IMG/VR virus record: IMGVR_UViG_3300045988_014834
Span: 1 to 41,350 of that record
DNA: 41,350 nt
Strand: one strand, 5' to 3'
Origin: a virus
Lineage: Duplodnaviria; Heunggongvirae; Uroviricota; Caudoviricetes
The notes under the pieces were generated by a model. It made no database searches. It saw only the letters and a list, made by a program, of their open reading frames with translations, and had not been told where the DNA came from. Position numbers and translations under genes: made by a program. Below are positions 7,712 to 32,855 of the stretch, piece by piece. Each line of letters starts with the position of its first letter. The stretch's first letter is position 1.

Positions 7712-7975
7712 CTATTCCAGAATATTCCTCACGTAATCCTGCAACATGAACACTTTCAGCCGCAGCTGCCGTACACATTCGGCGTTCTGAACGTCGATGG
7801 CTAAATCCTCGTCAGCGTCGCTACTTGGCATCGCCAGTTTGCACGGCGGCTGCATCATCGTCGTATCCGGAGATGGAATTGGCGTTTGCGACGGCGCGGG
7901 ACTTGAGTTGCACGCGCTCAGGGTCAAAAGTGCACACGCTGCGACCAGGCGTTTTGATGTACTTAACGACTTCAC
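7712..7975 (-). CDS. o-spanin (Rz1-like lipoprotein), 87 aa
   Basis: Signal peptide with lipobox LSAC, Pro-rich mature region, starts inside the upstream gene in a different frame. Confidence 0.5.
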   Translation of the reverse strand: MKSLSTSKRLVAACALLTLSACNSSPAPSQTPIPSPDTTMMQPPCKLAMPSSDADEDLAIDVQNAECVRQLRLKVFMLQDYVRNILE

Positions 7976-8207
7976 GGGTAATCACCTCTGATTTCGTCTT
8001 GCCTTCGTTGTCAGCGGCTGCGGCCTTTGATTCATCCTGCTGCTGCCGTTGTGTTTTCTTCGCTAACTCAGCCTGGGCTTTCTGCTGTTGCTGCGAAACG
8101 AGATTCGCCCGGCCTTCGCTCCAGCCGCTGCGGTACTGATAGATGCCGTGTGCGTAAGCCAGGATGATGAAACATGCTCCTGCTACGACAGTTGCTTTAA
8201 GATTCAT
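7821..8207 (-). CDS. i-spanin (Rz-like), 128 aa
   Basis: N-terminal transmembrane helix then charged Gln/Lys-rich region; embeds the lipoprotein ORF. Confidence 0.5.
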   Translation of the reverse strand: MNLKATVVAGACFIILAYAHGIYQYRSGWSEGRANLVSQQQQKAQAELAKKTQRQQQDESKAAAADNEGKTKSEVITREVVKYIKTPGRSVCTFDPERVQLKSRAVANANSISGYDDDAAAVQTGDAK

Positions 8208-8306
8208 GTTTCCCCTTTCTCGATAAGTAAAGCCCCGCCTTAAAGCGGGGCGCTAGTCCTTATCATTTAAACATAGAAACGGCGTAATCTCAGTAAACCA
8301 GTTACT

Positions 8307-8460
8307 TTTTACACAAGCAATAGAGTATGGCCCTTCCGAACGCGTCAGCGTAACTACACTCAGGACTTACGTCCCGCTCCGTTACCTGCCCGCGCCGCGG
8401 TCGCTTGTTCACACTTCACAAGCTCAGGAGGAGCTTAGCACACTTTTAGTGAAAAGTCAA
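8307..8460. repeat. Conserved ~150-bp noncoding element, copy A (second copy 20382-20525)
   Basis: About 75 percent identity to copy B with compensatory changes in a hairpin (GGAC-TTAC-GTCC here, GTGCC-TAAT-GGCAC in B). Confidence 0.6.
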
Positions 8461-8522
8461 CTATTCGAATAGTTTATTCCAACATTTACAATTTAGTGGA
8501 ATAACTGGAATACATAAATAGT

Positions 8523-8551
8523 TTGCACACCCCGATATAATAGGGTACTAT
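8523..8551 (+). promoter_or_regulatory. Early promoter copy (TTGCAC N17 TACTAT) driving the methyltransferase
   Basis: TTGCACACCCCGATATAATAGGGTACTATTCAG. Confidence 0.6.
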
Positions 8552-8579
8552 TCAGTTAACTTGAACAGCAGGAGTTAAA

Positions 8580-9308
8580 ATGTTTACTTTGAAACGTGGG
8601 GATTGTCTGGAGTTGATGCATGACGTACCAGATAAGAGTGTAGACCTTATTTTATGCGATTTACCTTATGGTACGACGCAAAACAAATGGGATACGGTAA
8701 TACCTTTCGATGCCCTATGGGGCCATTACATGCGTATTTCTCGCGGTGCTATTGTGCTAACAGCAGCGCAACCTTTCACTAGCGCGTTGATTATGAGTAA
8801 TGCTAAATTGTTCAAATACTCGTGGGTTTGGGATAAGGCAAATAGCACTGGATTCCTTAACGCTAAAAAGCAACCTTTACGCCGAACAGAGGACGTGGTT
8901 GTATTTTATGGCTCACAGCCAACCTATAACCCTCAAATGGAAGTTAGAGGTAAGCCCCGTAAGAAAGGTGGGTATATTAAAAAAGACGGCTCTGACAACT
9001 ATGGGTCTTTTAAAAGTGTAGAATCTGTTAGTAATGATTACTACCCCACCAATTTGATAGAAATATCTAATGCTAATAGGTCGGAAAAGTGCCACCCCAC
9101 CCAAAAACCAGTAGCGTTGATGGAATACCTGATTAAGACGTATACAAACGAAGGGGATACAGTTCTTGATAACTGTATGGGCAGCGGGACGACCGGAGTT
9201 GCGTGTGCGAACACAAACCGGAAGTTTATAGGCATGGAGTTAGACCGTGATTACTTCCGTATAGCCAGAAGACGCATATCTGAAGCATATAAAACTAAGG
9301 CCCCTTAA
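8580..9308 (+). CDS. Orphan DNA methyltransferase (N6-adenine/N4-cytosine beta-class), 242 aa
   Basis: Catalytic-motif region DLILCDLPYG followed later by the AdoMet motif HPTQKP...VLDNCMGSGTT; no restriction enzyme partner nearby. Confidence 0.85.
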   Translation: MFTLKRGDCLELMHDVPDKSVDLILCDLPYGTTQNKWDTVIPFDALWGHYMRISRGAIVLTAAQPFTSALIMSNAKLFKYSWVWDKANSTGFLNAKKQPLRRTEDVVVFYGSQPTYNPQMEVRGKPRKKGGYIKKDGSDNYGSFKSVESVSNDYYPTNLIEISNANRSEKCHPTQKPVALMEYLIKTYTNEGDTVLDNCMGSGTTGVACANTNRKFIGMELDRDYFRIARRRISEAYKTKAP

Positions 9309-9320
9309 GGGGCCTTTTAT
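9295..9320. terminator. Bidirectional hairpin terminator (AAGGCCCC-TTAA-GGGGCCTT)
   Basis: Perfect hairpin between convergent genes. Confidence 0.65.
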
Positions 9321-18276: not shown

Positions 18277-18307
18277 ATTCTGTCTCTCCTCTCGTTCGTG
18301 TAAATGA

Positions 18308-18336
18308 ATAGTAGCCTATTCTATCTTAGCGTGCAA
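18308..18336 (-). promoter_or_regulatory. Promoter TTGCAC, 17 nt, TACTAT (early-type, divergent spacer)
   Basis: Minus strand TTGCACgctaagatagaataggcTACTATTCA. Confidence 0.5.
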
Positions 18337-18575: not shown

Positions 18576-18595
18576 GAAAAATGATACGCTGCTGT
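18576..18595 (-). terminator. Hairpin ACGCTGCT-GTGT-AGCAGCGT followed by a T-rich run on the minus strand
   Basis: Read from sequence. Confidence 0.45.
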
Positions 18596-18638
18596 GTAGC
18601 AGCGTAAGTCACTCAGTAAAATCTTAAACTATTGAACA

Positions 18639-19934: not shown

Positions 19935-20153
19935 TTATTTAAAGTAGATAGCGAATTTCTTGTAACCCGCAGGCTCGTTACGAAGCCCTTTACCGTTAGC
20001 GAAACGTTGTACGTTGATAAAATCATTTTCATCCATTCCGTCGGTGTCGAACGTACAGAAGTTGCGTTTGTTCCCAATAATTACGCGCTCTGAGGTATCG
20101 ATGCCGTAAACTTCTTTGATTGCGGAAACTACGCTTGCAGTCGCTTTGTTCAT
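19935..20153 (-). CDS. First early-left gene, hypothetical, 72 aa
   Basis: AGGAAT upstream; about 30 nt downstream of the early promoter. Confidence 0.4.
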   Translation of the reverse strand: MNKATASVVSAIKEVYGIDTSERVIIGNKRNFCTFDTDGMDENDFINVQRFANGKGLRNEPAGYKKFAIYFK

Positions 20154-20187
20154 TTCTGAATTCCTTATGTCTCGTTCCGATAAGTGA

Positions 20188-20216
20188 ATAGTATACTATT
20201 ATGTTGGGGTGTGCAA
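20188..20216 (-). promoter_or_regulatory. Early promoter copy (TTGCAC N17 TACTAT) for the leftward early operon
   Basis: Minus strand TTGCACACCCCAACATAATAGTATACTATTCAC. Confidence 0.6.
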
Positions 20217-20381
20217 GAGATTAGTTACGTTGCCGTTGTGATTCTTTCGTTTCTTAAAAGAGTACGCAACGCAGTGGGTGGGCGTTAGCCCACCCCAGCG
20301 GAGTGAAGTACTCTCTACATTGCTTACGGCAACTATAGAAACTTTTAATTATCAGTGACTTGGGTATTTAGGCGGGATTAA

Positions 20382-20525
20382 CAATAGACTTTGGCCCTTC
20401 CGAAAGCGCCAGCGGAACTACACTCAAGTGCCTAATGGCACGCGTTGCGTTCCCTGCCGCTCCGCGGTCGCTTGCGATATCTCACAAGCTCAGTGAAGCT
20501 TAGCATATTTTTAAGTAAAAGTCAA
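20382..20525. repeat. Conserved ~150-bp noncoding element, copy B
   Basis: Aligns with 8307-8460 including covarying hairpins. Confidence 0.6.
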
Positions 20526-20572
20526 TACCAGTAGCATCTTTTGTATCTTAGTAACTTTGTGCGGTGTTTTGG

Positions 20573-20601
20573 TTGCTTTTACATTCCCGCTATCCTATAC
20601 T
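20573..20601 (+). promoter_or_regulatory. Rightward early promoter candidate (TTGCTT, 17 nt, TATACT)
   Basis: Read from sequence, upstream of the HTH gene at 20633. Confidence 0.45.
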
Positions 20602-20632
20602 CGGTTTCACCAAACCAACAGGAGATGTAAAA

Positions 20633-20815
20633 ATGCAGCATTACATGACACAGAATGAAGTAGCTGAACGTATCGGGGTGACCCGTCAGACAATTAATAA
20701 CTGGTTGCGCAGTGGTAAATTCCCGGATTGTTGTATTAAGGTTATGGGCCGCCGTTTACCAGGAACATTTGATCGTAATAAAGTTGAAGCGTGGATTAAG
20801 GAGAACGTGAAATGA
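20633..20815 (+). CDS. Small HTH DNA-binding protein (AlpA/Xis-like), 60 aa
   Basis: GGAG then ATG; HTH-like segment MTQNEVAERIGVTRQTINNWLRSGKFP. Confidence 0.5.
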   Translation: MQHYMTQNEVAERIGVTRQTINNWLRSGKFPDCCIKVMGRRLPGTFDRNKVEAWIKENVK

Positions 20816-21102
20816 AAGGTGTAATATTCCATGATAAAGAGAACGACAATTCTTATATGGTTTATTTGGTGCAAGGCGAGTATGCGTTGTGCTTTAACGT
20901 TTCTTGTAAACTGGACTCTTATTCACCGTTTTGCGTTACAGAAGAATTGCAGTTGATTAGTCTCCGAAGACTCAGCACAATGTCGGCCTCCATCGATGTC
21001 TCTGACCACTTAGCGTACGTTTATCAGTATTTCGGCGATGAGATTGTTGTAGATTATTATCGTAAGTATGAGCATTTGATGGGATGTCTGGCTAAAAGAT
21101 AA
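20812..21102 (+). CDS. Hypothetical protein, 96 aa
   Basis: ATGA-coupled to the upstream gene. Confidence 0.35.
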   Translation: MKGVIFHDKENDNSYMVYLVQGEYALCFNVSCKLDSYSPFCVTEELQLISLRRLSTMSASIDVSDHLAYVYQYFGDEIVVDYYRKYEHLMGCLAKR

Positions 21103-21160
21103 AAGAAAGCCCCGACGCGGTGAACGCCGAGGCCAAATTACTTGCTGAAGGAAATACAAC

Positions 21161-23428
21161 ATGTACGATGTAATTTTATCCTACTCGTGGTCACGTCGCA
21201 ACGCGCGAGCAGAGAAAAAGGATATAAACGTCAGAACCACACACACGGCAACACTGGACGACCTGAAAGAGTTAATCCGGCCGCTCGATGCCGTCCGCGA
21301 TGGGATTAACCCTAAGACCGCTCCCGGTTATATCACTGCCGCGTGTGACTCAACGCACAGCACCGTAAAAGACCCGGAAACCGGTGACTTTAAGCAGGCA
21401 CGTAAAGGCTTTTTCTATCGCTGTGACGCGTCTGTAAGCAAATCGTCACTGGCGTATCTGGACTTTGACAGCGCAACGCCGGAAGAATATCAGGAAGCGG
21501 TGCGCCTGGTTAAGCGCAGCCGCCATGCCATGTGCCTCTATACCACGGCTTCCCATACAGATGAGTCGCCACGCTTTCGTGTCGTCATGCCGCTGGCCCG
21601 CCCGGTTGAAGGCGGTGACATCATCCGCGTTCGTCATGGATTGCTGGAGCACTTCTTCAAAGGCATGGGCGCTGACCGCAGCGGGTTCACTCTGTCCCAG
21701 CCGATGTACCTGCCGCCGGTTGGCTCTACTGTTATCTGGTCGCGTCGCAATGACCTGATTGACCCCGACGAGTTACTGGAAGGTATCCCCGCCGTTGATG
21801 TTAGCAGCGCATCGGATTACCAGATACCGGAAGAACTGCGCACCGCGTTTACTGATGCGTTTGAAGCACTGGCGTTTGAGTACGGCGGGGTCATGACGCC
21901 GCGCGGCCTTAAGATGCCTGCTACACCGGAACATGCAGAGAACTACAGCGACCCGACGCCGCGCCCGGACGACTTCCTGCTGTGCTTCCCGCGCGAGGGA
22001 TACGAAGCGCCTAACGTAACCATGATTCACGACACCGACATCACGGCGACCGAAGGCATGCCCCCGAAAGAGGTGTGGAAATACGCGTGTGATGCTACCG
22101 GGCTGCCATTCAGTGAAGTGGCAGAGGCCATCGGTTGGGGTGCGCGTGAATCTGTCTCATGCAGCCTCGACGACCTGGAAGACGACGAGGACTCAGAGGA
22201 GGACGAGCTACCGGAACCGGTAAAGGCTGATTTCGTCGTAGAAGGGTACATGCCGTCGGATTGCATCTGGGATATTGTTGGGGAATCTGGCACGTACAAA
22301 TCATTCTATACGCTGGGGATAATGTACCTGAGCGCCGCCGGATACCGGTTTGCAGGGGCTGATACCCAGCGTTGCCACCATTTCTATATCGACGGTGAGG
22401 GTGGCGCAGCTACCCGCACACGTATCGATGCACTCGCAGCCAAATATGGTGAGGAAGGTAAAGATTATGTACATGTCATCGATATGGGTGAAGTCGGCAA
22501 GCTGAAAAGCCTGATTAAGCTAATGCGTGAAACTGCGGGCGACGAGCCAATCGGCATGGTTGCGTTCGACACCCTTAATCAGACCCTGGCCCTGACGATT
22601 GATAAGTTCGATGAGAACAGTTCATCAACAGCAATCGGCATGGGTAAAGTTATCGCCATTCTGAAAGAAGTACGCGACGCAACTAAAGCCGCGGTGGGTG
22701 TCGTTCACCATACCCCGAAGGGCGGAAAGAAAGCCCGCGGCAGTGGGGCGCTGTATGCGGGTGTCGACGTGGAACTGACAATAGAACGCGCGACCGAACG
22801 TCAGATAAACGTATACCACTCTAAATTTAAGCACGGGCCTCAACAGAAAACGGTTGGTATGGTGCTGGAGTCGGTACAGTTCCGCGAAGCCCCGCCGTCG
22901 AAAGAATACCGCGCGGTTGAGTTCCTCGGTAGCGCAGAGGAATACGGCACAATAGTAAACCTCGACCTGCCTGAGCCGCACAAGGCGCTTGTGCTGATGC
23001 CGTGGGGTTTCGAGCCGTTCAAAACTGACGAGGAGAAAGAGAGGGAAGAAGGGCTGACAAAGGAAGGTAAAGAAAACGTACGTAAAACCGTAGAGAACGC
23101 CGTCAACAGTTCAGAAGCCACGATACTCGCCGCGTTTGAACTGGCGGAAGGAACCTACAACGGCAACGAGGGCATCACGGTAGCCGCAGCGAATAAGCTC
23201 GCGCAGTCTGACCCCAACGCAAAGGCGTTTAACTCCAAAGAAGCCATAGAACGCGGGAAGATTAAGAAAATGGTTGAGGCGGGGTATCTCGTGCCCGGGA
23301 CTGACGAAAACAATCAGATAATCCCGGGCCGTTACAGACTTAACACCCGGATAACGGATAACAAGATTCCGAAGACAATATACGAACCGAATGAAATGTT
23401 GACAGTAACAGAGGAGGATTTGGAATGA
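21161..23428 (+). CDS. Replicative primase/helicase (primase-like N-terminal region plus P-loop ATPase), 755 aa
   Basis: Walker A GESGTYKS; RecA-like core; size and position at the head of the replication module. Confidence 0.5.
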   Translation: MYDVILSYSWSRRNARAEKKDINVRTTHTATLDDLKELIRPLDAVRDGINPKTAPGYITAACDSTHSTVKDPETGDFKQARKGFFYRCDASVSKSSLAYLDFDSATPEEYQEAVRLVKRSRHAMCLYTTASHTDESPRFRVVMPLARPVEGGDIIRVRHGLLEHFFKGMGADRSGFTLSQPMYLPPVGSTVIWSRRNDLIDPDELLEGIPAVDVSSASDYQIPEELRTAFTDAFEALAFEYGGVMTPRGLKMPATPEHAENYSDPTPRPDDFLLCFPREGYEAPNVTMIHDTDITATEGMPPKEVWKYACDATGLPFSEVAEAIGWGARESVSCSLDDLEDDEDSEEDELPEPVKADFVVEGYMPSDCIWDIVGESGTYKSFYTLGIMYLSAAGYRFAGADTQRCHHFYIDGEGGAATRTRIDALAAKYGEEGKDYVHVIDMGEVGKLKSLIKLMRETAGDEPIGMVAFDTLNQTLALTIDKFDENSSSTAIGMGKVIAILKEVRDATKAAVGVVHHTPKGGKKARGSGALYAGVDVELTIERATERQINVYHSKFKHGPQQKTVGMVLESVQFREAPPSKEYRAVEFLGSAEEYGTIVNLDLPEPHKALVLMPWGFEPFKTDEEKEREEGLTKEGKENVRKTVENAVNSSEATILAAFELAEGTYNGNEGITVAAANKLAQSDPNAKAFNSKEAIERGKIKKMVEAGYLVPGTDENNQIIPGRYRLNTRITDNKIPKTIYEPNEMLTVTEEDLE

Positions 23429-23622
23429 GCGGTAAATTTAAAGAAGTAAGCGACGAACTGAAAGGTAATAAATACACCAACCACAGAGGTGAAGTAGTGG
23501 AAGTTCTTAACGTAGTTCCTTATGGGCGTGGGTATCATGTTGTATACAGCTACACAGAGGCTTACAGCGTGTATTGCGGGTTAGGTAAGTTTCGAAAAAG
23601 ATACCCGATAAAGGTGCAATAA
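23425..23622 (+). CDS. Hypothetical protein, 65 aa
   Basis: ATGA overlap with the primase stop behind a strong GAGGAGG. Confidence 0.4.
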   Translation: MSGKFKEVSDELKGNKYTNHRGEVVEVLNVVPYGRGYHVVYSYTEAYSVYCGLGKFRKRYPIKVQ

Positions 23623-23650
23623 AAAAAAAGAAAGGGGCGTTAAGCCCCTT
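23622..23650 (-). terminator. Hairpin terminator (GGGGC-GTTAA-GCCCC) with T9 on the minus strand
   Basis: Read from sequence; stop codon of the HTH gene lies in the loop. Confidence 0.55.
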
Positions 23651-23855
23651 CACCAAACGCCAGCCACTTGGCGTCTACTTGCAGCACTTCCGCCAGTTTG
23701 AACAGCGTCGCCGGGCGGACGTCCTGAGTTACTCCAAGCGCCAGCTGGTTAATTGCACCCTGGGAAACGCCGGCCAGAACAGCCAGACGGCGCTGGGAGA
23801 TGCCGAGTTCTTTACGGCGTTGTTCTACACGAATGCCTAGTTCAGATGGTTGCAT
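23640..23855 (-). CDS. Cro/CI-type (XRE family) HTH regulator, 71 aa, divergent within the replication arm
   Basis: ELGISQRRLAVLAGVSQGAINQLALG is a classic XRE-type HTH; AAGGAG upstream. Confidence 0.6.
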   Translation of the reverse strand: MQPSELGIRVEQRRKELGISQRRLAVLAGVSQGAINQLALGVTQDVRPATLFKLAEVLQVDAKWLAFGEGA

Positions 23856-23919
23856 GTCAATTACTCCTTAGTCAGTTGATATGTGAATAGTACCATATTA
23901 ATTATTTTAGAAAAGCCCA

Positions 23920-23948
23920 TTGACAAGTGAATAGCTCGCTATTATAGT
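23920..23948 (+). promoter_or_regulatory. Middle promoter TTGACA, 17 nt, TATAGT with embedded palindrome AATAG-N4-CTATT (23930-23943)
   Basis: ttgacaagtgAATAGctcgCTATTatagtt. Confidence 0.55.
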
Positions 23949-23979
23949 TAGCACATACCAAACGAGAGGAGCGAAACAA

Positions 23980-24450
23980 ATGTTAGACCAATTTCTGAAA
24001 TTACTTGAGCGTTTCGTAGTTGCCCACGAACTGATTGCTGCGAACAGTGTGAAACAAGTAGTCGTTGCTGAAACCGCAACAATCGAGACCACTGTTGCGA
24101 AAGAAGCAACAAAAGAAATCCCAGTCGAAGGTGAAGACCTCGTCGACACTAAACCGGCAGAAGAAGAGAAGCCAAAACGCAAGCCGCGTAAAGCTAAAGT
24201 AGAGGAGCCGACGCCAGAGCCGGAAGAAGAGAAGGAAGAAGTCGATTACCAGTCTCTGCGCGACCAGATTCAGGCTATCGACGATGCGATTAATGAAGGT
24301 CCGAGCGATGCCGCGTGCGATGATTCCGATGAACTGCTGGAAGAGTTCACCGGTAAGAAAATGAAGATTGCCGCGATTAAAGACGAAGACCTGGCCGAGT
24401 ACCTGGAACGCCTGACGGCAATCAAGAACAAGTATTTCGAAGAAGAATAA
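23980..24450 (+). CDS. Highly acidic protein, 156 aa
   Basis: Long Glu/Asp-rich stretches, short basic patch KPKRKPRKAK, C-terminus YFEEE. Confidence 0.45.
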   Translation: MLDQFLKLLERFVVAHELIAANSVKQVVVAETATIETTVAKEATKEIPVEGEDLVDTKPAEEEKPKRKPRKAKVEEPTPEPEEEKEEVDYQSLRDQIQAIDDAINEGPSDAACDDSDELLEEFTGKKMKIAAIKDEDLAEYLERLTAIKNKYFEEE

Positions 24451-24493
24451 CTATCTCGCGGCCTTCGGGCCGCTTTAACTGAGGGTCGGAAAT

Positions 24494-24766
24494 ATGATTT
24501 ATCAACTCTACCGCGCCGTAGACAGGCGAGATAACACCGAGGCGTTGTGGCTATTGCGTGCGCCGTCAGGGGCGCACCAGATGGAAGAGATGGCCTACTT
24601 AGGCAAAGTACCACGGCCTAAAGATATAGGCCGTCATGTGTCGCAGATTAAGCGCACGACTTTCGCCAAGCCAGACTTTTATGTCTTCGAGTCGATGTAT
24701 GGCTGGGCTATGCATTGCGATCATAAGACCAGGCATTTAATTGACCAGTGGGAGAACATGGTATGA
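24494..24766 (+). CDS. Hypothetical protein, 90 aa
   Basis: Track ORF with GAGGG upstream. Confidence 0.4.
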   Translation: MIYQLYRAVDRRDNTEALWLLRAPSGAHQMEEMAYLGKVPRPKDIGRHVSQIKRTTFAKPDFYVFESMYGWAMHCDHKTRHLIDQWENMV

Positions 24767-25110
24767 CGGATAAATGGTGGCTTAATTTGCGCAGCGGTGA
24801 CAAGGTTTACACCGTCGGTGACCGCAGAAAGAACAGTGGCGCAGCTACTGTTCTACAAAATGGCAAAAAGTACATACACATTGCGCATGAAGCTCGGGCG
24901 CTCCGCGTGAATAAATCATCCGGCAGGCTTGAGGATTACCCAAAAACATTTATATACAAAAGTGAAAAGCATCACATGGCCGCTGTTGACGCAAGACGTC
25001 AGTTCGCAGGAATGTTGCGACAGTTAAGTGACTTACATCGTGATGATTCTTTCATTCCTACAGAAGAACAGTTACAAGCATTAAACTTGTATTTGGAGAG
25101 TTTACGATGA
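24748..25110 (+). CDS. Hypothetical protein, about 115-120 aa
   Basis: Coupled ORF. Confidence 0.4.
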   Translation: MGEHGMTDKWWLNLRSGDKVYTVGDRRKNSGAATVLQNGKKYIHIAHEARALRVNKSSGRLEDYPKTFIYKSEKHHMAAVDARRQFAGMLRQLSDLHRDDSFIPTEEQLQALNLYLESLR

Positions 25111-26348
25111 TTCTAAAAGAACGCGGCGGCAATAATGATGTGCACGCCTTACTGTCACCGTCTGGGGCTAAAAAGTGGCTTACATGCAGTGCATCACTGG
25201 CCTGTGAGAAAGATATTCCTAACACGTCGGGTAAAGCCGCTGTATTAGGCACAGCCATGCACACCATAGCTGAGGTACATCTCAACGCCTATATTCGCGG
25301 AACTGCGTTGCCGTTAGAGCGTGAAGTTGGTGCTTACGTGCTGGATGAGGGTAAAGGCCAGATTAAGGCGCTAATCAGCCCGATGAAAGGTGCGGTACTG
25401 ATTACGGCGGACATGATTGAGCAGGTGCGCAAGTACACCGACTACTGTAAGGCAATTATCGATGTAGCGACTTACGCCAAGCTCGAGATGCGCGTCAATC
25501 TTACGGAGGTATTGCATCCGGGTTACGAAGGCGTTGAGACGTTCGGAACGGCTGACCTTGTTGCCGTTCAGGAACTAGCAAACACCGACGAGCACATGCT
25601 CATTATCGGTGACCTGAAAACAGGACGGCATCGTGTCGAAGCGAAAGAAAACAAGCAGCTTATGCTTTACGCTCTCGGTGTTTATCGCCGACTCAAGAGG
25701 CGCTATAACATCACCGTGGTTCGTCTGGTAATATTCCAGCCGTACGCTGGTGGTGCGTCGGAGTGGGGCATCTCGGTTGAAGGTCTGGAACTGTTCGCCA
25801 AGTTTGCACAAAAACGCGCGCTGTTAGCCCTTGATGCGTATTCCCGTGGCAAGAAGAACCTGAAAGCGTCTGACTTCAGGCCATCGGTAGATGGTTGTCA
25901 GTGGTGCCGGTTCTCCGAACAATGCGCCGCACGTACAAAGACGGTTAACGCAGTACTGGCGGAAGAACTGGAAGACGATTTTGCGCTTGAGCTTACGCCT
26001 GAGCAACTCGTAGCTGAGTATGAGAAGTTGCCGTTGTTGCGACAGCACATCGACAAGGTCGAGAAAGCTATGGCCGCCGCGTTGCATTCCGGTAAGAAAG
26101 TGCCGGGGTACAAGCTGGTAGAAGGTCACCATGGTAATCGTGCGTGGAAAGATGCGGAGAAAGTAGCAGAACTCTACGGCGACAAGCTGACTAAAGAAGT
26201 GCTCATGTCACCTACCGAAGCTGTTAAAGTCATACCGGAAGAAGAACTGAAAGACTTCATTACCCGTAAGCCCGGCGCACCGTGTGTTGCAACGGCAGAC
26301 GACAAACGCCCTGAGTGGAATCAGGTAACAGAGGAGGATTTAGAATGA
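25107..26348 (+). CDS. PD-(D/E)XK nuclease, Cas4-like (DUF2800-type phage exonuclease), 413 aa
   Basis: Core GTADLVAV...IGDLKTGR and C-terminal Cys cluster CQWCRFSEQC. Confidence 0.6.
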   Translation: MILKERGGNNDVHALLSPSGAKKWLTCSASLACEKDIPNTSGKAAVLGTAMHTIAEVHLNAYIRGTALPLEREVGAYVLDEGKGQIKALISPMKGAVLITADMIEQVRKYTDYCKAIIDVATYAKLEMRVNLTEVLHPGYEGVETFGTADLVAVQELANTDEHMLIIGDLKTGRHRVEAKENKQLMLYALGVYRRLKRRYNITVVRLVIFQPYAGGASEWGISVEGLELFAKFAQKRALLALDAYSRGKKNLKASDFRPSVDGCQWCRFSEQCAARTKTVNAVLAEELEDDFALELTPEQLVAEYEKLPLLRQHIDKVEKAMAAALHSGKKVPGYKLVEGHHGNRAWKDAEKVAELYGDKLTKEVLMSPTEAVKVIPEEELKDFITRKPGAPCVATADDKRPEWNQVTEEDLE

Positions 26349-26518
26349 TGGTTTATATACTCACGCGGTATCACCGCCGATACTCTATTCAAGAACTTGA
26401 TATTGTTTCTGTTCACGCCAAACGCGCCGACGCCGACAAAATTGCAGAAGAGAAGAACTCAAAGCATGATGCGGTGCAACCTTATATCTATAAGGTAGTT
26501 CCGAAGAGACTTAAATAA
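26345..26518 (+). CDS. Small basic protein, 57 aa
   Basis: ATGA overlap with the nuclease stop behind GAGGAGG. Confidence 0.35.
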   Translation: MMVYILTRYHRRYSIQELDIVSVHAKRADADKIAEEKNSKHDAVQPYIYKVVPKRLK

Positions 26519-26522
26519 AGTG

Positions 26523-26552
26523 TTGACAACCTGAATAGTTAGCTATTATAGT
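26523..26552 (+). promoter_or_regulatory. Middle promoter TTGACA ... TATAGT with palindrome AATAG-N4-CTATT (26534-26547)
   Basis: ttgacaacctgAATAGttagCTATTatagtt. Confidence 0.5.
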
Positions 26553-26607
26553 TCTAATCACTGGCCGGGCAGTTCCCGGAGTAAACTTTGAAAAGCGAGA
26601 AATCAAG

Positions 26608-27234
26608 ATGGGACTGAAATTAAATCTGCGTAAAGTAAACACTGCATGGGTTAACGTATTCGAACGCGAAAAAGACCGTGAAAACGATGATGGCTCAATC
26701 ACTAAAGGCCAGTACAGCGCGACTATTATCCTGCCGTCTGACCATGCTCAAATCGACGCGCTTTACGATACCGTTTACGCTGTAGTTGAAGAAGCATTAG
26801 GCGCAGCCGCTGCCGAGAAATGGATGAAGTCCAACTACGGCGAAGGGAAGCACATGGATAAATGCGCGATTAAAGACATTGCAGAGCGCGACAATCCGTT
26901 TGAGGACTTCCCGGAAGGCTTCTACTTCAAAGCGAAGGCACAGAAACAGCCGCTGATTGTAACCTCTAAAAAAGGTGAGACTCAGGTAGAGCAGGACTTC
27001 AACGTAGACGGCGAACAGATTGAAGGCGAACAGGTTTACAGCGGCTGCGTAGCTAACGTAAGTGTTGAAATCTGGTTCAGCCAGAAATACAAAGTACTCG
27101 GCGTTAACCTGCTGGCTATTAAATACGTCGGCGAAGGTAAAGCGTTCGGTGGTTCTAAAGTCGCTGCAAGCGTCAATGACCTGGAAGACGACGAAGAAGA
27201 TGAAGCACCGCGCCGTGAACGTCGTCGCCGCTAA
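26608..27234 (+). CDS. ssDNA-binding protein candidate (DUF2815-like), 208 aa
   Basis: Acidic C-terminal tail DLEDDEEDEAP; lies between the Cas4-like nuclease and the polymerase. Confidence 0.45.
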   Translation: MGLKLNLRKVNTAWVNVFEREKDRENDDGSITKGQYSATIILPSDHAQIDALYDTVYAVVEEALGAAAAEKWMKSNYGEGKHMDKCAIKDIAERDNPFEDFPEGFYFKAKAQKQPLIVTSKKGETQVEQDFNVDGEQIEGEQVYSGCVANVSVEIWFSQKYKVLGVNLLAIKYVGEGKAFGGSKVAASVNDLEDDEEDEAPRRERRRR

Positions 27235-27295
27235 TATCTGAATCAATCTAACTAAGGCCCTTCATTGGGCCTTTTTACTAAGGGTCGAAAATAAT

Positions 27296-29566
27296 ATGCC
27301 TAATTTATTATACCTGGATACTGAGACATTCTCTGAAGCGGACTTAAAGAAAGTCGGATCGTATGCGTATGCGGAGCATCCGACAACCGAGATTATAATT
27401 TGTACATATGCCATTGATGATGGGCCCGTAGAAGTATGGGATTGCACTTCCGAACCGGTAATGCCAATAAGCCTCCGCATTGCGCTGCGCAATGTTATGC
27501 GCGGACGTATGAGAATTGTAGGCCATAACTTTTTAATGTTCGACAGGCTTGTTATGAAGCACTGCTGGGGCGTTGATATCAAGCCAAGAAACACCATTGA
27601 CACGATGATTAGAGCGTTTCGTCACGCGTTGCCGGGGTCACTTGATGCGCTGTGCGAAGTGCTGGGCGTATCTGCGGACAACGCTAAAGATAAACGCGGC
27701 AAGGCGCTGATTCAGCGTTTCTCTAAACCCACGCCGAAGAACTACAAAATCCGCCGCTACACCGCTGAAACTCACCCTGACGAGTGGGCTCTGTTCATCA
27801 AGTATGCCGTGAGCGACATCACTGCGATGCGTGAAGTCTTCCATAAGCTGCCGCGTTGGGGTAACTCAGAGTTTGAAGACCGCGTACTGGAACTGGACCA
27901 GTTAATCAACGACCGAGGCTTCTTTGTTGACACGGCTCTTGCTGAGGCGGCGGTAGCGGCAGTGGAACGCCACAAGCAAGAGCTAAAAAACGAGGCCCGC
28001 GCGAAATTCGGGGGGAAACTAACTGGCAAAGATTTCCTGCCAATCCTTCGGGAACTGGCACCGGCCTACAACATTTATAATGCGCAGAAAGCAACGCTCG
28101 AAGGTTTGCTAGAGGACGACGACCTGCCTGATGATGCGCGTACAATCATTGAGATGCGCCTCGGCGCGGCCTCCACGGCGTCGACAAAATACAAACCGCT
28201 CCTGCTAGGACGGTCCAAAGACGGACGGCGCCGTGGTTGCATCCAGTACGGTGGGGCAAAGCGCACTTTACGATTTGCGGGTAAAGGGTTCCAGCCGCAG
28301 AACCTGTCGCGTGGGTACTACCACGACGACCCAACCAACGAGGAAAAGAAACTCGTACGCCAGCCGTGGGAGTCTGACGAAGACTGGAACCGCAGGCTTA
28401 ACCCGCTATCCTTCGGCATCAATTTGCTTTTAAAGGGTCGGGCGCATCGCCGTTTTGATATATCTAAACTAACGGCCTCAACTGTCCGCAGTTGCATCAT
28501 CCCGGAAAAAGGCAATAAGTTGCTCGTTGCCGACTACTCAAACGTGGAAGGTCGTGGGTTAGCCTGGACGGCGGGGGAGACGTCTGCCCTTGAGACGTTC
28601 CGCGCGGGGATTGATATCTATTGCGCCACAGCTGGTAAGATGTTCGGCATGGACCCTATTGAGCTTAAAGCCACCCGTAAGGACCTGCGTCAGGTCGGGA
28701 AATGTTGCGAGCTCGGCCTCGGCTACGAGGGGGGCGTAGGGGCCTTCATGACTATGGCTAAAACTTACGGGCTGGACCTCTTTAAAATGACGGAGACAAT
28801 GCGGGGGACATTCCCTGACCATATATGGGCCGCCACTGCCCGAGGTTATGAATGGGCGCGGATCCAGGAGGCTAAGCGACCTCCAAAACCCGGTAAAAAG
28901 GATGAACGGGCCTCTTACGTGTTGCCTAAGGAAGTGTGGCGTACCTGTGATGCTATCAAGCGCATGTGGCGGGAAGCTCACCCGGAAACAGTGAAATTCT
29001 GGAACGACCTTAAGGATTCGGTAATTGCTGCAATCAGAAATCCGGGACGAGAGTTTTGGGCGGGAGCCAGAGTCCGCCTTAACGGCGACAGAGCTATTCG
29101 CATCTGGCGTACTAAAGAGAAAGACAGACAGGGTAACTTTGTGCCAGGTTGGTGGCTGTGCGTGGAGTTGCCGTCCGGACGCATCATGTCCTACCCTGGC
29201 ATAGGCTTAAGCGTGACTAAAGAAACTGACGAGGATGGGCGCGTAACAACTAACGTTCGCATTAAGTACCAGGGTGAAAACCAGACTACCCGCCAGTGGA
29301 CAACTTTGTACACACACGGTGGAAAATTGTGTGAAAACATCATCCAGGCGTTGTGCCGTGATTTACTGGTTAACGGACTCCTGACGGTCGAGGCAGCGGG
29401 CTACCCAATTGTACTTCACGTGCATGACGAATGCGTCGCCGAAACACCAGACACACCGGAGTACACGGTTAACGAGATGGGTGACCTGTTATGCTCATTA
29501 CCTGAATGGGCTGAAGGATTCCCACTAACATGGGCCGGGGAAGAGGTGTACCGTTATGCTAAGTAA
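27296..29566 (+). CDS. DNA polymerase, family A, with 3'-5' exonuclease domain, 756 aa
   Basis: Exo I motif YLDTETF; PolA motif A DYSNVE, motif B K..G.YG, motif C VHDE. Confidence 0.85.
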   Translation: MPNLLYLDTETFSEADLKKVGSYAYAEHPTTEIIICTYAIDDGPVEVWDCTSEPVMPISLRIALRNVMRGRMRIVGHNFLMFDRLVMKHCWGVDIKPRNTIDTMIRAFRHALPGSLDALCEVLGVSADNAKDKRGKALIQRFSKPTPKNYKIRRYTAETHPDEWALFIKYAVSDITAMREVFHKLPRWGNSEFEDRVLELDQLINDRGFFVDTALAEAAVAAVERHKQELKNEARAKFGGKLTGKDFLPILRELAPAYNIYNAQKATLEGLLEDDDLPDDARTIIEMRLGAASTASTKYKPLLLGRSKDGRRRGCIQYGGAKRTLRFAGKGFQPQNLSRGYYHDDPTNEEKKLVRQPWESDEDWNRRLNPLSFGINLLLKGRAHRRFDISKLTASTVRSCIIPEKGNKLLVADYSNVEGRGLAWTAGETSALETFRAGIDIYCATAGKMFGMDPIELKATRKDLRQVGKCCELGLGYEGGVGAFMTMAKTYGLDLFKMTETMRGTFPDHIWAATARGYEWARIQEAKRPPKPGKKDERASYVLPKEVWRTCDAIKRMWREAHPETVKFWNDLKDSVIAAIRNPGREFWAGARVRLNGDRAIRIWRTKEKDRQGNFVPGWWLCVELPSGRIMSYPGIGLSVTKETDEDGRVTTNVRIKYQGENQTTRQWTTLYTHGGKLCENIIQALCRDLLVNGLLTVEAAGYPIVLHVHDECVAETPDTPEYTVNEMGDLLCSLPEWAEGFPLTWAGEEVYRYAK

Positions 29567-29687
29567 ACTGATTATAGCGGTACTGGCGGGATTCGCTGCC
29601 GGTGTTTACTGTCACGAGGGGCAATACGGCATGATTGTCGCCGTACTAGGCATGTTCATCGCAATTTATCTGTGGGTGCTGGAATGA
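29556..29687 (+). CDS. Small hydrophobic membrane peptide, 43 aa
   Basis: ATG overlapping the polymerase 3' end; one transmembrane helix. Confidence 0.3.
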   Translation: MLSKLIIAVLAGFAAGVYCHEGQYGMIVAVLGMFIAIYLWVLE

Positions 29688-29773
29688 AAATTTACCGGTT
29701 ATACGAAGAAGACTGTAGAATCTGTCTGCGCTGCGGGATTGAGCATACGAAACGGGAGGGGTGTGTACTATGA
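29684..29773 (+). CDS. Small Cys-rich (zinc-ribbon-like) peptide, 29 aa
   Basis: ATGA overlap; Cys pattern C-x2-C ... C. Confidence 0.25.
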   Translation: MKIYRLYEEDCRICLRCGIEHTKREGCVL

Positions 29774-29922
29774 CGATGTTTGTATTTTGGTCGACAGTAA
29801 CCCTGCTCGCACTGTTACTCGGCGCGGGAATAGCCGCGATGTTCTGTTATGGCCTGTTCTTTAAGTTTGTCGGTGTTGCCGTTCTGGGAGGGGCTTTCCT
29901 TACTTGGGTTCTGCGCTCATGA
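29770..29922 (+). CDS. Small membrane protein, 50 aa
   Basis: ATGA overlaps on both sides; two hydrophobic segments. Confidence 0.3.
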   Translation: MTMFVFWSTVTLLALLLGAGIAAMFCYGLFFKFVGVAVLGGAFLTWVLRS

Positions 29923-30203
29923 CTAAAGAGGGCCGCGTACAGAAATACGCAAAGGAGCGATTCGAGGCCCTCGGGGGCCTCGTTCGAAAGCTGTCTTATG
30001 AGGGACGCTCCGGCGCCCCCGACCTCCTGGTAATTCTCCCCGGCGGCATTGTCTGGTTTGTCGAGGTTAAGAAAGACGAAAATACGAAGCCAGACCCGCA
30101 CCAGTTACGTGAACATGAGAGATTTCGAAAACGTGGTGCAAATGTTTTTGTCGTCGGTTCGTTTAAACAGGTTGACGACCTAATAGCGAACTATTATAGT
30201 TAG
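29919..30203 (+). CDS. VRR-NUC domain nuclease, 94 aa
   Basis: Core PDLLVILPGGIVWFVEVKK (D...E.K PD-(D/E)XK pattern). Confidence 0.55.
   Translation: MTKEGRVQKYAKERFEALGGLVRKLSYEGRSGAPDLLVILPGGIVWFVEVKKDENTKPDPHQLREHERFRKRGANVFVVGSFKQVDDLIANYYS
30172..30200 (+). promoter_or_regulatory. Middle promoter TTGACG, 17 nt, TATAGT with palindrome AATAG-N4-CTATT (30182-30195)
   Basis: ttgacgacctAATAGcgaaCTATTatagtt, inside the 3' end of the VRR-NUC gene. Confidence 0.5.
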
Positions 30204-30233
30204 TCCTACACCAACAATATAAGGAATTGAGAA

Positions 30234-30425
30234 ATGAAACACGAATATGACCGCAAGCCAGCCCGTGACATCGTACCAGGTGACATGATTTTCAACGTTA
30301 AGACACGCCAGCCTGTTGCCGTTGATACGGTGTTCGTCGAGTCGAACGGTAAACTGGTTATCGAGGACGTAACCGGTAACGTTACGGCGTTTGGGCGTAA
30401 AGAGTTAGTTCTGGTGTTGAAATGA
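30234..30425 (+). CDS. Hypothetical protein, 63 aa
   Basis: AAGGAAT upstream of the ATG. Confidence 0.4.
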   Translation: MKHEYDRKPARDIVPGDMIFNVKTRQPVAVDTVFVESNGKLVIEDVTGNVTAFGRKELVLVLK

Positions 30426-30919
30426 ACAAATTAACTAGAAGGCCTGATATTGAGGAGGCGAAACGTCTTCTTAACTATGACCCCGAAACAGGCGTATTTA
30501 CACGGAAAGTAAGCATAAAAGGTAGGAATGCGGGGGAGGTAGCCGGGGGTCCAAACGACAAAGAATACATAGTTATCACCGTATCTGGTGTAAGAATAAA
30601 AGCCCACCATCTGGCATGGGCTTTCGTCTACGGAGAATATCATAATGGTGAGCTTGACCATAAAGACCGTAACAGGGCTAATAACGCCATAAATAATATA
30701 AGGCCAGCAACCAGGAGCCAGCAGATTCAGAACCGAGACTGCGCATCACATAACACTAGCGGTGCGATAGGGGTTTACCAAATACCCTCTGGCAGGTGGC
30801 GCGCCAGAATAGGCGTCAATAACAAATACATCCACCTTGGCTATTTTGACACTATAGAAGAAGCGTCGCGCGTATACCAAAGAGCCGCGGAAATATACTT
30901 CGGGGAGTTCAGGGCATGA
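30422..30919 (+). CDS. HNH homing endonuclease with C-terminal AP2-like DNA-binding domain, 165 aa
   Basis: HNH motif HH...ELDHKDRNRANN..NN; C-terminal GVYQ..SGRWRARI...LGYF.T.EEA..Y. Confidence 0.65.
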   Translation: MNKLTRRPDIEEAKRLLNYDPETGVFTRKVSIKGRNAGEVAGGPNDKEYIVITVSGVRIKAHHLAWAFVYGEYHNGELDHKDRNRANNAINNIRPATRSQQIQNRDCASHNTSGAIGVYQIPSGRWRARIGVNNKYIHLGYFDTIEEASRVYQRAAEIYFGEFRA

Positions 30920-32340
30920 GTAAGTTTAGGCGCAGGGAATATCAGAAAATAATGACGTCGTTTATGTTACGGCACCCACGTTGCAATATCTGGTGCGGCA
31001 TGGGAGGGGGTAAAACCTCCTCTACTATGTGGGTGCTCAACAGATTGTTTCGCAACGGGCAGCTTACTGAAGAGGACCGAGTGTTAATTCTGGCTCCTTT
31101 ACGTGTTGCGTCAGGTACGTGGCCAGCGGAACAGGCACGTTGGAATTTCCCATGCCTGAGTGTCGTAGATGCCACCGGTTCAGAGAAGCGCCGCATCGCG
31201 GCGCTGGAGTCCGACGCTAACGTGGTATGCACCAACTATGAAGTTATCGAGTGGCTTATTGACTATTACGGCAAAGACGACTGGCCTTTCACCGTTATCG
31301 TTGCCGATGAAAGCACGAAGCTAAAATCATTCCGCAGCCGTTCTGGCGGTAGCAAGCGGGCAAAGGCGCTTAGTAAAGTGGCGTTCGGAAAGGTTAAGCG
31401 TTTCATTAACCTGACGGGCACACCGTCGCCAAACGGCCTCAAGGACTTGTGGGGGCAGAACTGGTTTATCGACGCTGGCGAGCGACTCGGTTCTTCATAC
31501 ACGGCATTCACCGACCGATGGTTTAACTCGGTGCAGAAAGGTAAGTCGGCTATGGCGCGGGGGTATCACGCACGACCTGGTGCAGATAATGAAATTCACC
31601 AGAAGATGAAGGACATTAGTCTCACGATTGACGCCGCCGAGTGGTTCGGATGCGAAGCGCCGATTATTGTACCGGTTGAAATTGACCTGCCTAAGAAAGC
31701 ACGTCAGGCGTATATCGATATGGAGGAGAAGCTATTCGCGGAACTGGAGAGCGGAGAAGTCGAAGCGGCTAACGCCGCGGCGAAGACCTCAAAGTGTTTG
31801 CAGATTGCGTCTGGTGCCGTGTATGTGTCAGGACCAGACGGAGAAGCAACCAAAGACTGGGAGAAAGTGCACGACACGAAACTGGATGCGCTGGAGTCGA
31901 TTGTTGAGGAGTTACAGGGCGCGCCGTTACTTGTGGCCTATCAGTTCAAGCACGAACTGGAGCGCATCCTTAAGCGGTTCCCGCAGGCACAGGCGTTTGC
32001 CAAAGGTGTGAAGGGTAATAAGCAGATGGAAGCGTGGAACCGCGGTGAAATCGAAATATTATGCGTACACCCTGCGTCAGCCGGGCATGGTTTGAATTTG
32101 CAGGACGGCGGACATCATCTGGCGTTTATTTCGCAAGGGTGGAACCTTGAGCACTATTTGCAGGTTGTCGAGCGCATAGGCCCAGTTCGCCAGAAACAGG
32201 CGGGCCACGAACGCCCTGTGTTCCTTTACCACATTGTTGCTAAAGACACGCTGGACGAGGTTGTTGCCGCGCGTACCGACGAGAAGAAATCGGTACAGGA
32301 AGAATTGCTTAATTACATGAAGAGACGAGGTAAGAAATGA
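30916..32340 (+). CDS. SNF2/DEAD-like superfamily 2 helicase, 474 aa
   Basis: Walker A GMGGGKT, DEST box, LTGTPSPN motif. Confidence 0.7.
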   Translation: MSKFRRREYQKIMTSFMLRHPRCNIWCGMGGGKTSSTMWVLNRLFRNGQLTEEDRVLILAPLRVASGTWPAEQARWNFPCLSVVDATGSEKRRIAALESDANVVCTNYEVIEWLIDYYGKDDWPFTVIVADESTKLKSFRSRSGGSKRAKALSKVAFGKVKRFINLTGTPSPNGLKDLWGQNWFIDAGERLGSSYTAFTDRWFNSVQKGKSAMARGYHARPGADNEIHQKMKDISLTIDAAEWFGCEAPIIVPVEIDLPKKARQAYIDMEEKLFAELESGEVEAANAAAKTSKCLQIASGAVYVSGPDGEATKDWEKVHDTKLDALESIVEELQGAPLLVAYQFKHELERILKRFPQAQAFAKGVKGNKQMEAWNRGEIEILCVHPASAGHGLNLQDGGHHLAFISQGWNLEHYLQVVERIGPVRQKQAGHERPVFLYHIVAKDTLDEVVAARTDEKKSVQEELLNYMKRRGKK

Positions 32341-32546
32341 ATAATGAGTTTGATATTGACGCTTGCAACGAATTGATAAAAGCCGCTCTTAATGCCCGCG
32401 AGCAACTGCTTGCCATGCAGTTAAAGCGAGAAATAAAACGTATCAAGGAACTGGAAGAAGAGGTTCTACGACTACGGCAGCAGCGTGACGCGGCTAACGC
32501 TCTTATTCAGGAACAGAACCGAATTATTGCAGGAGATACAGAATGA
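32337..32546 (+). CDS. Small coiled-coil protein, 69 aa
   Basis: Coupled to the helicase; heptad-like charged pattern. Confidence 0.35.
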   Translation: MNNEFDIDACNELIKAALNAREQLLAMQLKREIKRIKELEEEVLRLRQQRDAANALIQEQNRIIAGDTE

Positions 32547-32826
32547 AAGTCAACGAACTACTCCAGGAATCCGCGTACACCCTCACTCAGCGTGGTGAGC
32601 AGAACGGATACGATAAGAAGGAAGAGGCAGTGCTGCCGAGGTTGCGGCGCTGTTTAACCTGAAGACGGGTCATAGCCTTACTGAGTCCGATGCCTGGCAA
32701 TTCATGATTTGCCTGAAGGAGGTGCGTCTAAAACAGCAGCGGAAGAATGGCGGTGATAAGAAGGACACGCCGATAGACCTGATATCTTACCAGGCGCTGC
32801 TCGCGGAATGTTTAACTGATAAATGA
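32543..32826 (+). pseudogene. Gene split across two frames (frameshifted or recoded)
   Basis: ATG-initiated 39-codon ORF (32543-32662) overlaps a start-less 69-codon open frame (32617-32826) around a purine run. Confidence 0.4.
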
Positions 32827-32855
32827 AAAAGGCCCCTAAAGGGGCCTTAATTTTA
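32826..32855. terminator. Bidirectional terminator (GGCCCC-TAAA-GGGGCC) between replication arm and tailspike
   Basis: Perfect hairpin with flanking A and T runs. Confidence 0.7.

Follow-up and report, generated by a model that had tools for sequence, protein, structure and literature searches.

A covarying structured RNA behind a predicted dedicated promoter in Guernseyvirinae phages

Introduction

What kind of element sits in the divergent early control region of this phage, repeated at a second site and carrying promoter-like hexamers on its minus strand, and what would it do there? The stretch analysed here (the window, 41,350 bp) had been read from its letters alone, and positions 20382-20525 had been picked out as the second copy (copy B) of an element whose TTGACT and TAAGCT hexamers are 17 nt apart, exactly as in the first copy (copy A), with a stable hairpin downstream. 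The original prediction held that this architecture recurs at two early control regions and represents a shared regulatory or RNA-coding module. Its positions are correct throughout: both hexamers and their spacing, the hairpin, the leftward early promoter, and the rightward promoter at 20573-20601.

The window is collinear with the E. coli Kagunavirus/Guernseyvirinae siphophages, and the region in question is 94-98% identical to fPoEco01, Ivi and Bas70. This collinearity and identity mark the window, at the level of sequence, as a complete Kagunavirus (Guernseyvirinae) siphophage genome. Its two ends (1-55 and 41296-41350) are identical over 55 bp, which reflects a short terminal repeat or, for a circularly permuted genome, an overlap left by assembly. 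In the annotated relatives Bas70 and Jersey, a single very long leftward transcription unit of ~29 kb begins at the divergent region near 20.5 kb (Table 1), and the rightward genes, from 20.6 to 32.5 kb, are replication genes.

The Guernseyvirinae, comprising the Jersey-like Salmonella phages and the Kagunavirus coliphages, are among the phages most often isolated for therapy and biocontrol, and serve as models in the BASEL collection. They time their late genes without an RNA polymerase of their own or a recognisable Q or N protein. A conserved structured RNA positioned where the late operon begins is a specific candidate for this timing control, and one that is easy to test.

Table 1. Positions of the two RNA copies, their predicted promoters and the surrounding features
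Feature	Position	Strand	Description or basis
Promoter P_A	8432..8460	(-)	same TTGACT-N14-TGC-TAAGCT pattern as P_B
Copy A structured RNA core	8313..8431	(-)	covariance model, 99.9 bits
Copy A P1	8423-8417 with 8409-8403	(-)	
Copy A P2-P3 arm	8400-8381 with 8354-8336	(-)	
Copy A P4	8375-8362	(-)	
Copy A invariant UUCGGAAGGGCC	8340-8329	(-)	
Copy A hairpin	8232..8251	(-)	GCCCCGC-UUUAA-GGCGGGGC, then UUUACUUAU; terminator-like; ~25 nt upstream of Rz start codon
Rz-like spanin, first late-operon gene behind copy A	7821..8207	(-)	Bas70/Jersey annotation
Promoter P_B	20497..20525	(-)	TTGACT -35 at 20525-20520; TAAGCT -10 at 20502-20497; 17-nt spacer
Copy B structured RNA core, type B1	20377..20496	(-)	covariance model, MFE, covariation
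Copy B P1	20489-20483 with 20476-20470	(-)	
Copy B long arm P2a/P2b/P2c/P3	20467-20449 with 20418-20400	(-)	
Copy B P4 hairpin	20441-20428	(-)	
Copy B invariant UUCGGAAGGGCC	20404-20393	(-)	
Copy B CUAUUG	20387-20382	(-)	
Copy B hairpin	20276..20295	(-)	GGGTGGGC-GTTA-GCCCACCC; minus-strand RNA GGGUGGGC-UAAC-GCCCACCC; ~100 nt past core
Class I early leftward promoter	20188..20216	(-)	TTGCAC-N17-TACTAT; operator-like palindrome AATAG-N4-CTATT at 20187-20200
First gene (72 aa) of leftward operon predicted to be fed by P_B and early promoter	19935..20153	(-)	
Leftward unit, part 1: small early genes, holins, endolysin		(-)	Bas70/Jersey annotation
Leftward unit, part 2: terminase, portal, head morphogenesis genes		(-)	Bas70/Jersey annotation
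Leftward unit, break: opposite-strand methylase cassette and bidirectional terminator	8.5-9.3 kb		
Leftward unit, part 3: Rz/Rz1 spanins, scaffold, major head protein, connector		(-)	Bas70/Jersey annotation
Leftward unit, part 4: tail genes	across window ends to tailspike at 32.85 kb	(-)	
AATAG-N4-CTATT palindromes	681-694, 8539-8552, 18307-18320, 20187-20200, 23930-23943, 26534-26547, 30182-30195		

Two copies with the same promoter-like geometry

Copy B is a direct repeat of 8318-8462 (copy A). A repeat search pairs 8318-8362 with 20382-20426 at 89% identity, the alignment runs for ~150 nt, and islands of similarity follow further downstream. The pattern TTGACT-N14-TGN-TAAGCT occurs exactly twice in the window (8432-8460 and 20497-20525, both on the minus strand) against 0.01 expected by chance, and a covariance model of the RNA described below likewise finds exactly two copies, at 8313-8431 (99.9 bits, E 4e-24) and 20377-20497 (86.3 bits, E 1.4e-20). 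The repeat, the pattern matches and the model matches all bear out the description of copy B as a second copy.

The hexamers have the layout of a host promoter. The spacer of P_B ends in TGC, placing an extended -10 TG at 20505-20504, and the predicted start lies near 20491-20489. A generic promoter scan makes no call at either element, because TAAGCT agrees with TATAAT at only 3/6 positions. Support for the promoter consists of the good -35, the TGn extended -10 and a geometry that is conserved across diverged types: the same layout with differing spacer sequences is present in types A, B1, B2, S and V, reading TAGACT-N14-TGT-TACGCT in the Salmonella phages and TGGACT-N14-TGA-TAACCT in the variant type.

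The region upstream of P_A (8461-8513) contains a palindrome, CTATTCGAATAG, abutting the -35, along with GGAATAA, TTATTCC and GGAATAC repeats. Jersey (L204 7222-7262) and the variant contigs likewise have TTATTCC...GGAATA repeats 5′ of the promoter, and P_B has no GGAATAA/TTATTCC repeats. A late activator may bind at these sites. In a relative at a greater distance, with 78% major head protein identity, about five TTGCGAG/CTCGCAA motifs upstream of Rz replace the GGAATAA repeats (L292 1990-2260).

A conserved fold on the minus strand

Directly after the promoter comes an RNA of ~105-120 nt made of a short hairpin, P1, and an irregular arm of 22-24 bp, P2a-P2b-P2c-P3-P4, which holds an invariant bulged C and an invariant tandem G-U. 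The arm is followed by an invariant single-stranded tail, UUCGGAAGGG(C/U)C, and about 10 nt further on by (C/A)UAUUG. The features that never vary are ACCG-C-GG, the tandem G-U, and this tail with its (C/A)UAUUG. Copy B has a minimum free energy of -49.3 kcal/mol (z = -3.4), compared with -37.6 for the plus strand.

Homologues were gathered by pattern scans of IMG/VR and of metagenomes, giving about 30 distinct relatives in five sequence types. Types A and A2 lie upstream of Rz in coliphages, type S is the orthologue of copy A in Salmonella phages, and types B1 and B2 occupy the B locus of Kagunavirus. The metagenome scan returned the same types only. Single-sequence MFE folds have the same architecture in 5/5 types, and copies A and B differ by compensatory changes. 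Their inner hairpins read GGGAC-GUAA-GUCC(U) (copy A) and GUGCC-AUUA-GGCAC (copy B), their P3 helices GUAAC/GUUAC (copy A) and GGAAC/GUUCC (copy B), and a pair in P2b that is C-G in copy A is A-U in copy B. P4 is wholly replaced between types, always with its pairing kept.

Covariation was scored in two alignments, both of which lean towards the structure. In the hand-made structural alignment 94.8% of cells pair, against 28-48% when the 3′ partners are slid by 1-3 columns; 13 pairs are altered on both sides, and the covariation score is 0.40 against a shuffle mean of 0.11, with 0/500 shuffles as high. The model-fitted alignment of 27 distinct sequences gives 90.8% of cells pairing against 31-46% on sliding by 1-3 columns, 14 pairs altered on both sides, and a score of 0.31 against a shuffle mean of 0.075 (again 0/500 as high). 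One P2b pair lies between invariant columns and occurs as UA:13, CG:11 and AU:3, and so is unambiguous whatever the alignment choice. Plain MAFFT with RNAalifold also recovers the P2 covariation, including this UA/CG/AU pair.

The minus strand is the folded strand. On it 96.8% of cells pair, compared with 87.8% on the complement, an excess that arises because 50 G-U cells become A-C on the complement, and minus-strand folds are 12-13 kcal/mol more stable than those of the plus strand. On this strong covariation, the element consists of a putative promoter and, behind it, a structured RNA encoded on the minus strand. The proposal of a shared regulatory or RNA-coding module is thereby sharpened to a promoter with a structured minus-strand RNA, with covariation in the fold and a downstream hairpin in every type.

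Two further ideas about the RNA failed. A pseudoknot between the L1 loop and the tail, taken from the type-A MFE fold, was rejected: the tail variants CAUACU, CAUAGU and CAUAGG are uncompensated, and the type S loop is only 3 nt long. A mini-ORF starting at the conserved UUG of CUAUUG was discarded when variants were found to carry CUG or UUA. A rearranged variant of the RNA was also observed in two contigs (L284 2500-2640 and L286 2400-2540). There the 5′ strand of P2 is missing and ACCGCG adjoins CGGAAGGGCC; the promoter is of the same type, a hairpin of the form GUAAC...GUAA...GUUAC is kept along with the motif ACCGCGCGGAAGGGCC, and a GNRA hairpin, CGCC-GCAA-GGCG, is added. Its single-sequence MFE fold is unconvincing. 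This variant suggests that the invariant motif may matter more than the P2 helix.

Comparison with known RNAs, genes and motifs

The RNA resembles no catalogued family. Across the whole window, Rfam 15 gave 0 matches at the gathering threshold, and relaxing the thresholds in the neighbourhood of the two copies brought up noise only (E >= 0.56). ARAGORN found 0 tRNA or tmRNA genes. The copies share no ORF: the one in copy A starts with GTG and encodes 36 aa, the one in copy B encodes 24 aa and is out of register with it, and the indels between types are not multiples of three. The ops element GGCGGTAGnnTG, recognised by RfaH, has 4 one-mismatch matches in the window against 2.45 expected, none of them in the leaders. 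By inspection, the leaders contain neither a boxA (CGCUCUUA-like) nor a boxB hairpin with a GNRA-like pentaloop. Folds of the full leaders of types A, S, B1 and B2 contain no mutually exclusive antiterminator/terminator pairing, and the hairpin folds independently. A search of the phage genome for a complementary target of the invariant motif found none.

No description of this RNA was found in the literature on Guernseyvirinae/Kagunavirus RNAs, on put-like RNAs, or under the motif string. The one Kagunavirus transcriptome paper, a strand-specific RNA-seq study of phage vB_Eco_K1B4, reports gene-level classes only (PMC12645636). By these comparisons the RNA is a new structured family specific to Guernseyvirinae phages, with a predicted dedicated promoter. 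In many of the ~450 GenBank records that contain it, the RNA is labelled "hypothetical protein" (for example Bas70_0007 and Jersey gp08); in others it is unannotated.

Distribution and genomic context

The copy A type is present in 181 E. coli-phage records and its Salmonella form in 269 Salmonella-phage records, with one copy per genome. Without exception, both immediately precede the Rz spanin gene and the late operon for scaffold, capsid and tail, which runs from Rz and Rz1 through scaffold and major head protein on to the tail genes. Copy A thus does not lie in an early control region, and the idea of two early control regions holds for one copy: copy B does sit in the divergent early region, and copy A is the leader of the late lysis and structural operon. 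Copy A is back-to-back with an early-type promoter that drives the opposite-strand methylase gene. The bidirectional terminator of the methylase cassette, upstream of P_A, does the same job as a strong terminator in Jersey that ends the preceding Hoc-like gene or operon ~50 nt before P_A.

Copy B (types B1 and B2) occurs in Kagunavirus only, upstream of the class I leftward early promoter. This promoter lies downstream of copy B, and therefore only transcripts from P_B would carry the RNA. Jersey has copy A only. Its B locus (L204 38860-39200) has the same promoter type, TTGACA-N14-GTG-TAAGTT, followed by a different leader, which has only GGGCGAGCUAUAUU in common with the tail of the Jersey A copy. 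The A and B leaders of one genus are more alike in their tails than either is to its orthologue in the other genus.

Phages in which major head protein identity falls below about 94% lack the RNA, and in relatives whose major capsid protein is 83-94% identical the site is taken by unrelated leaders. One relative, with a 94% identical major head protein, has at this site an unrelated leader with strong structure (z = -4.4), flanked by a strong terminator on one side and Rz on the other (L283 2440-2620). This case suggests that the leaders are interchangeable modules.

Outside phage records, none of 5,426 complete E. coli genomes contains the RNA. Bacterial genomes were also scanned for the pattern CCGCGG-N40-70-TTCGGAAGGGCC, and none of the 120 matches listed was confirmed by the model; these are chance matches in high-GC sequence, and the scan is uninformative. 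The only plasmid match is PLSDB CP088689.1 (44,086 bp, an E. coli blood-isolate plasmid), which carries both RNA copies at 97.6% identity and is probably a Kagunavirus phage genome deposited as a plasmid.

Hairpins downstream of the RNA

A GC-rich hairpin follows the RNA by 60-110 nt in every type, with a type-specific sequence. The stems are GCCCCGC/GCGGGGC at copy A in the E. coli phages, GCCCGGC/GCCGGGC at the same position in the Salmonella type (as GCCCGGC-UUAC-GCCGGGC), GGGUGGGC/GCCCACCC at copy B, and GGUGCC/GGCACC in type B2, again at the copy B position (GGUGCC-UUCG-GGCACC). Only the E. coli type-A hairpin passes a terminator scan, and it alone has a reasonable, if partial, U-tail. 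The copy B hairpin has no U-tract and is not called an intrinsic terminator in the scan. The stable hairpin named in the original prediction is thus structurally conserved, although the copy B version does not qualify as a canonical terminator.

The hairpins bear on where transcription would go. Only ~10-20 nt separate the hairpin behind copy A from the ribosome-binding site of Rz, which leaves no space for another promoter, so late-operon transcription must pass the RNA and the hairpin. At copy B, the lack of a U-tract means that the transcript most likely continues into the operon.

What the RNA may do

Our preferred reading, which we hold tentatively, is that of a cis-acting leader RNA that would let host RNA polymerase read through downstream hairpins or terminators. 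A host sigma-70 promoter, with a good -35, an extended -10 and a weak -10, would start transcription a few bases before the two-domain fold. The RNA would remain part of a longer transcript, running leftward through the GC-rich hairpin into the downstream genes, and would act in cis on the polymerase that made it, either by itself, in the manner of HK022 put, or, like a nut site, with the help of a phage or host factor. The polymerase would then read through the nearest hairpin or terminator and the later terminators of the ~29 kb leftward unit.

Several features lead us to favour this reading. The anatomy of promoter, immediate fold, hairpin and long operon is found where leftward transcription must start or restart, and late-operon transcription has to cross both RNA and hairpin. 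A covarying fold, its strand and the promoter geometry are conserved together while the spacers differ. The copy B hairpin is without a U-tract, and further terminator-like sites lie on the same strand inside the leftward unit (18606-18585, 10883-10868, 9316-9297 and 2335-2316). Unpaired bases that never change and a fixed tandem G-U suggest that a conserved partner recognises the RNA. RNA polymerase is nearly identical in E. coli and Salmonella. At the level of annotation, neither a Q-like nor an N-like antiterminator is recorded in Bas70 (PHROG-based) or in RefSeq Jersey, and the design parallels HK022 putL/putR. Other observations count against a cis-acting leader. The downstream hairpins are mostly weak or non-canonical terminators, and the tail-gene block seems to have an extended -10 promoter of its own without the RNA. 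Jersey-type phages do without the RNA at the B locus, and close relatives (83-94% in major capsid protein) carry other leaders at the same site. The RNA model gives no match on the HK022 put region, and a promoter, structured RNA and terminal hairpin would also suit a stand-alone stable RNA.

Such a stable RNA of ~200 nt would end at the downstream hairpin and act in trans, either using its invariant loops to sequester a protein of the host or phage, or base-pairing through the AU-rich spacer. We regard it as possible, if on the doubtful side. The RNA has its own predicted promoter and folds compactly, every type has a GC hairpin 60-110 nt further on, its two copies are unlinked, and its invariant single-stranded motifs suggest a binding partner; in copy A the hairpin is followed by the partial U-tail UUUACUUAU. 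An Hfq-type RNA would end in a Rho-independent terminator, with a long run of U, and would keep a conserved seed. However, the copy B hairpins lack a U-tract, the spacer that would serve as the seed is not conserved between types A, B and S, and the invariant motif has no complementary target in the phage genome. With the hairpin just before the Rz ribosome-binding site and no other promoter there, read-through would be needed anyway. Processing by RNase III or another nuclease, with the fold as an mRNA-stability element that sets the mature 5′ end and half-life of the leftward mRNAs, in the way of the repeated T7 sites or of a stem-loop that stabilises a 5′ terminus, is rather unlikely. The P2-P4 arm, at 22-24 bp with internal loops, has the size of an RNase III substrate, P1 starts within a few nucleotides of the predicted 5′ end, and a repeated element in a virulent phage would suit this role; but RNase III needs neither invariant bases outside the helix nor a fixed tandem G-U, and a dedicated promoter puts the fold at the extreme 5′ end and not between cistrons.

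It is highly unlikely that the fold is a riboswitch-like or protein-dependent attenuator, sensing a ligand or factor to decide termination at the downstream hairpin. Copy A does have the layout of a 5′ leader (conserved fold, hairpin, gene), but the hairpins fold independently and no type has a mutually exclusive pairing; a gap of 60-110 nt lies between fold and hairpin, Rfam gives no riboswitch match, and copy B is followed by a promoter and not by a gene. Least credible of all is an element acting at the level of DNA, such as a replication origin, a single-strand initiation site or a protein operator. The location of copy B at the divergent switch of early transcription and its CCGCGG palindrome would fit one, but copy A is in the late region, the upstream promoter geometry is conserved, and the compensatory changes, including the 50 G-U cells, favour one folded strand in the pattern of a helix and not of a binding site.

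Among known systems, the cis-acting leader we prefer has its closest parallel in HK022. The putL and putR RNAs are paralogous promoter-proximal RNAs that bind the beta′ zinc-binding domain, after which the polymerase resists terminators more than 10 kb away (PMC9378689). Like put in HK022, and also in HK639 and the other lambdoid phages with put-like RNAs, the RNA described here is one of two paralogous structured RNAs per genome, each immediately behind a sigma-70 promoter (here a predicted one) where a long operon with internal terminators begins (PMC9378689), a likeness that holds for Kagunavirus only, Jersey-type phages having one copy. Both also have two stem-loop domains with bulges and no recognisable dedicated antiterminator protein. 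The differences are as clear. The phage RNA is 105-120 nt long, compared with ~70 nt for put, and has a long invariant single-stranded 3′ tail. It belongs to virulent siphophages and not to lambdoid temperate phages, and it heads a late structural operon where put heads early operons. Homology with put was rejected: the RNA model, run with filters off over HK022 20000-33500 (both put sites), gave a best hit of 6.5 bits (E 2.3), and comparison by eye with the HK022 sequence found no shared motifs (put has ~70 nt, two stems and GAACGGC...GGAUGA).

Copy A is also laid out like the lambda PR′-6S RNA-tR′ region that Q controls, with a promoter, a ~200-nt leader, a hairpin terminator, lysis genes and structural genes. 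Q, however, acts via the DNA site qut and needs no conserved RNA fold, whereas in these phages it is the fold of the RNA that is conserved. Lambda nut (boxA/boxB with N) and the bipartite conAn of Gram-positive conjugative elements are likewise leader RNAs, multi-copy or at operon heads, that could recruit a polymerase factor (PMC8191782), but inspection of the phage RNA reveals no boxA consensus or boxB-type hairpin. The RNase III processing sites of T7, also a virulent phage, are similar in being irregular hairpins that recur in the genome and span about two helical turns; the phage RNA differs in its own predicted promoter, its position at the transcript 5′ end and its invariant flanking single strands.

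A bolder version of the same reading is that the RNA forms a second, evolutionarily independent class that reprograms host polymerase in cis without a phage protein and drives the whole late programme of the virulent Guernseyvirinae phages (a ~17-29 kb unit) through multiple terminators and opposite-strand cassettes. This is unlikely on present evidence. If polymerase were modified as it is by put, the RNA would be only the second such class known, and a compact part for making operons terminator-proof.

Other transcription signals in the window

A candidate extended -10 promoter for the tail-gene block, TGTGCTAGAAT (TGTGC-TAGAAT), lies at 660-650 on the minus strand. It resembles GTGTGCTAAGCT of P_A and is back-to-back with an early promoter at 665-696, and no structured RNA lies behind it. 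A family of near-identical bidirectional terminators, AAGGCCCC-N4-GGGGCCTT, occurs at 2312-2337, 9293-9318, 27250-27275 and 32825-32850; its members lie at the borders of opposite-strand cassettes and at the point where the two main transcription units converge and end. Another terminator on the minus strand (18585-18606), with a 9-bp stem and the tail UCAUUUUUCU, comes after the sixth small early gene, and a fourth class I early promoter (18307-18335, minus strand) lies one gene past it. The leftward early region is therefore split into short units.

The palindrome AATAG-N4-CTATT is found 7 times in the window against 0.03 expected, every one within a promoter. It overlaps the -10 of four TTGCAC-N17-TACTAT early promoters and lies in the spacer of three TTGACA-N17-TATAGT promoters in the replication region. 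P_A and P_B have no such palindrome. It is probably the operator of a phage regulator, for example the HTH protein encoded at 20634-20815 or the 71-aa regulator at 23640-23855.
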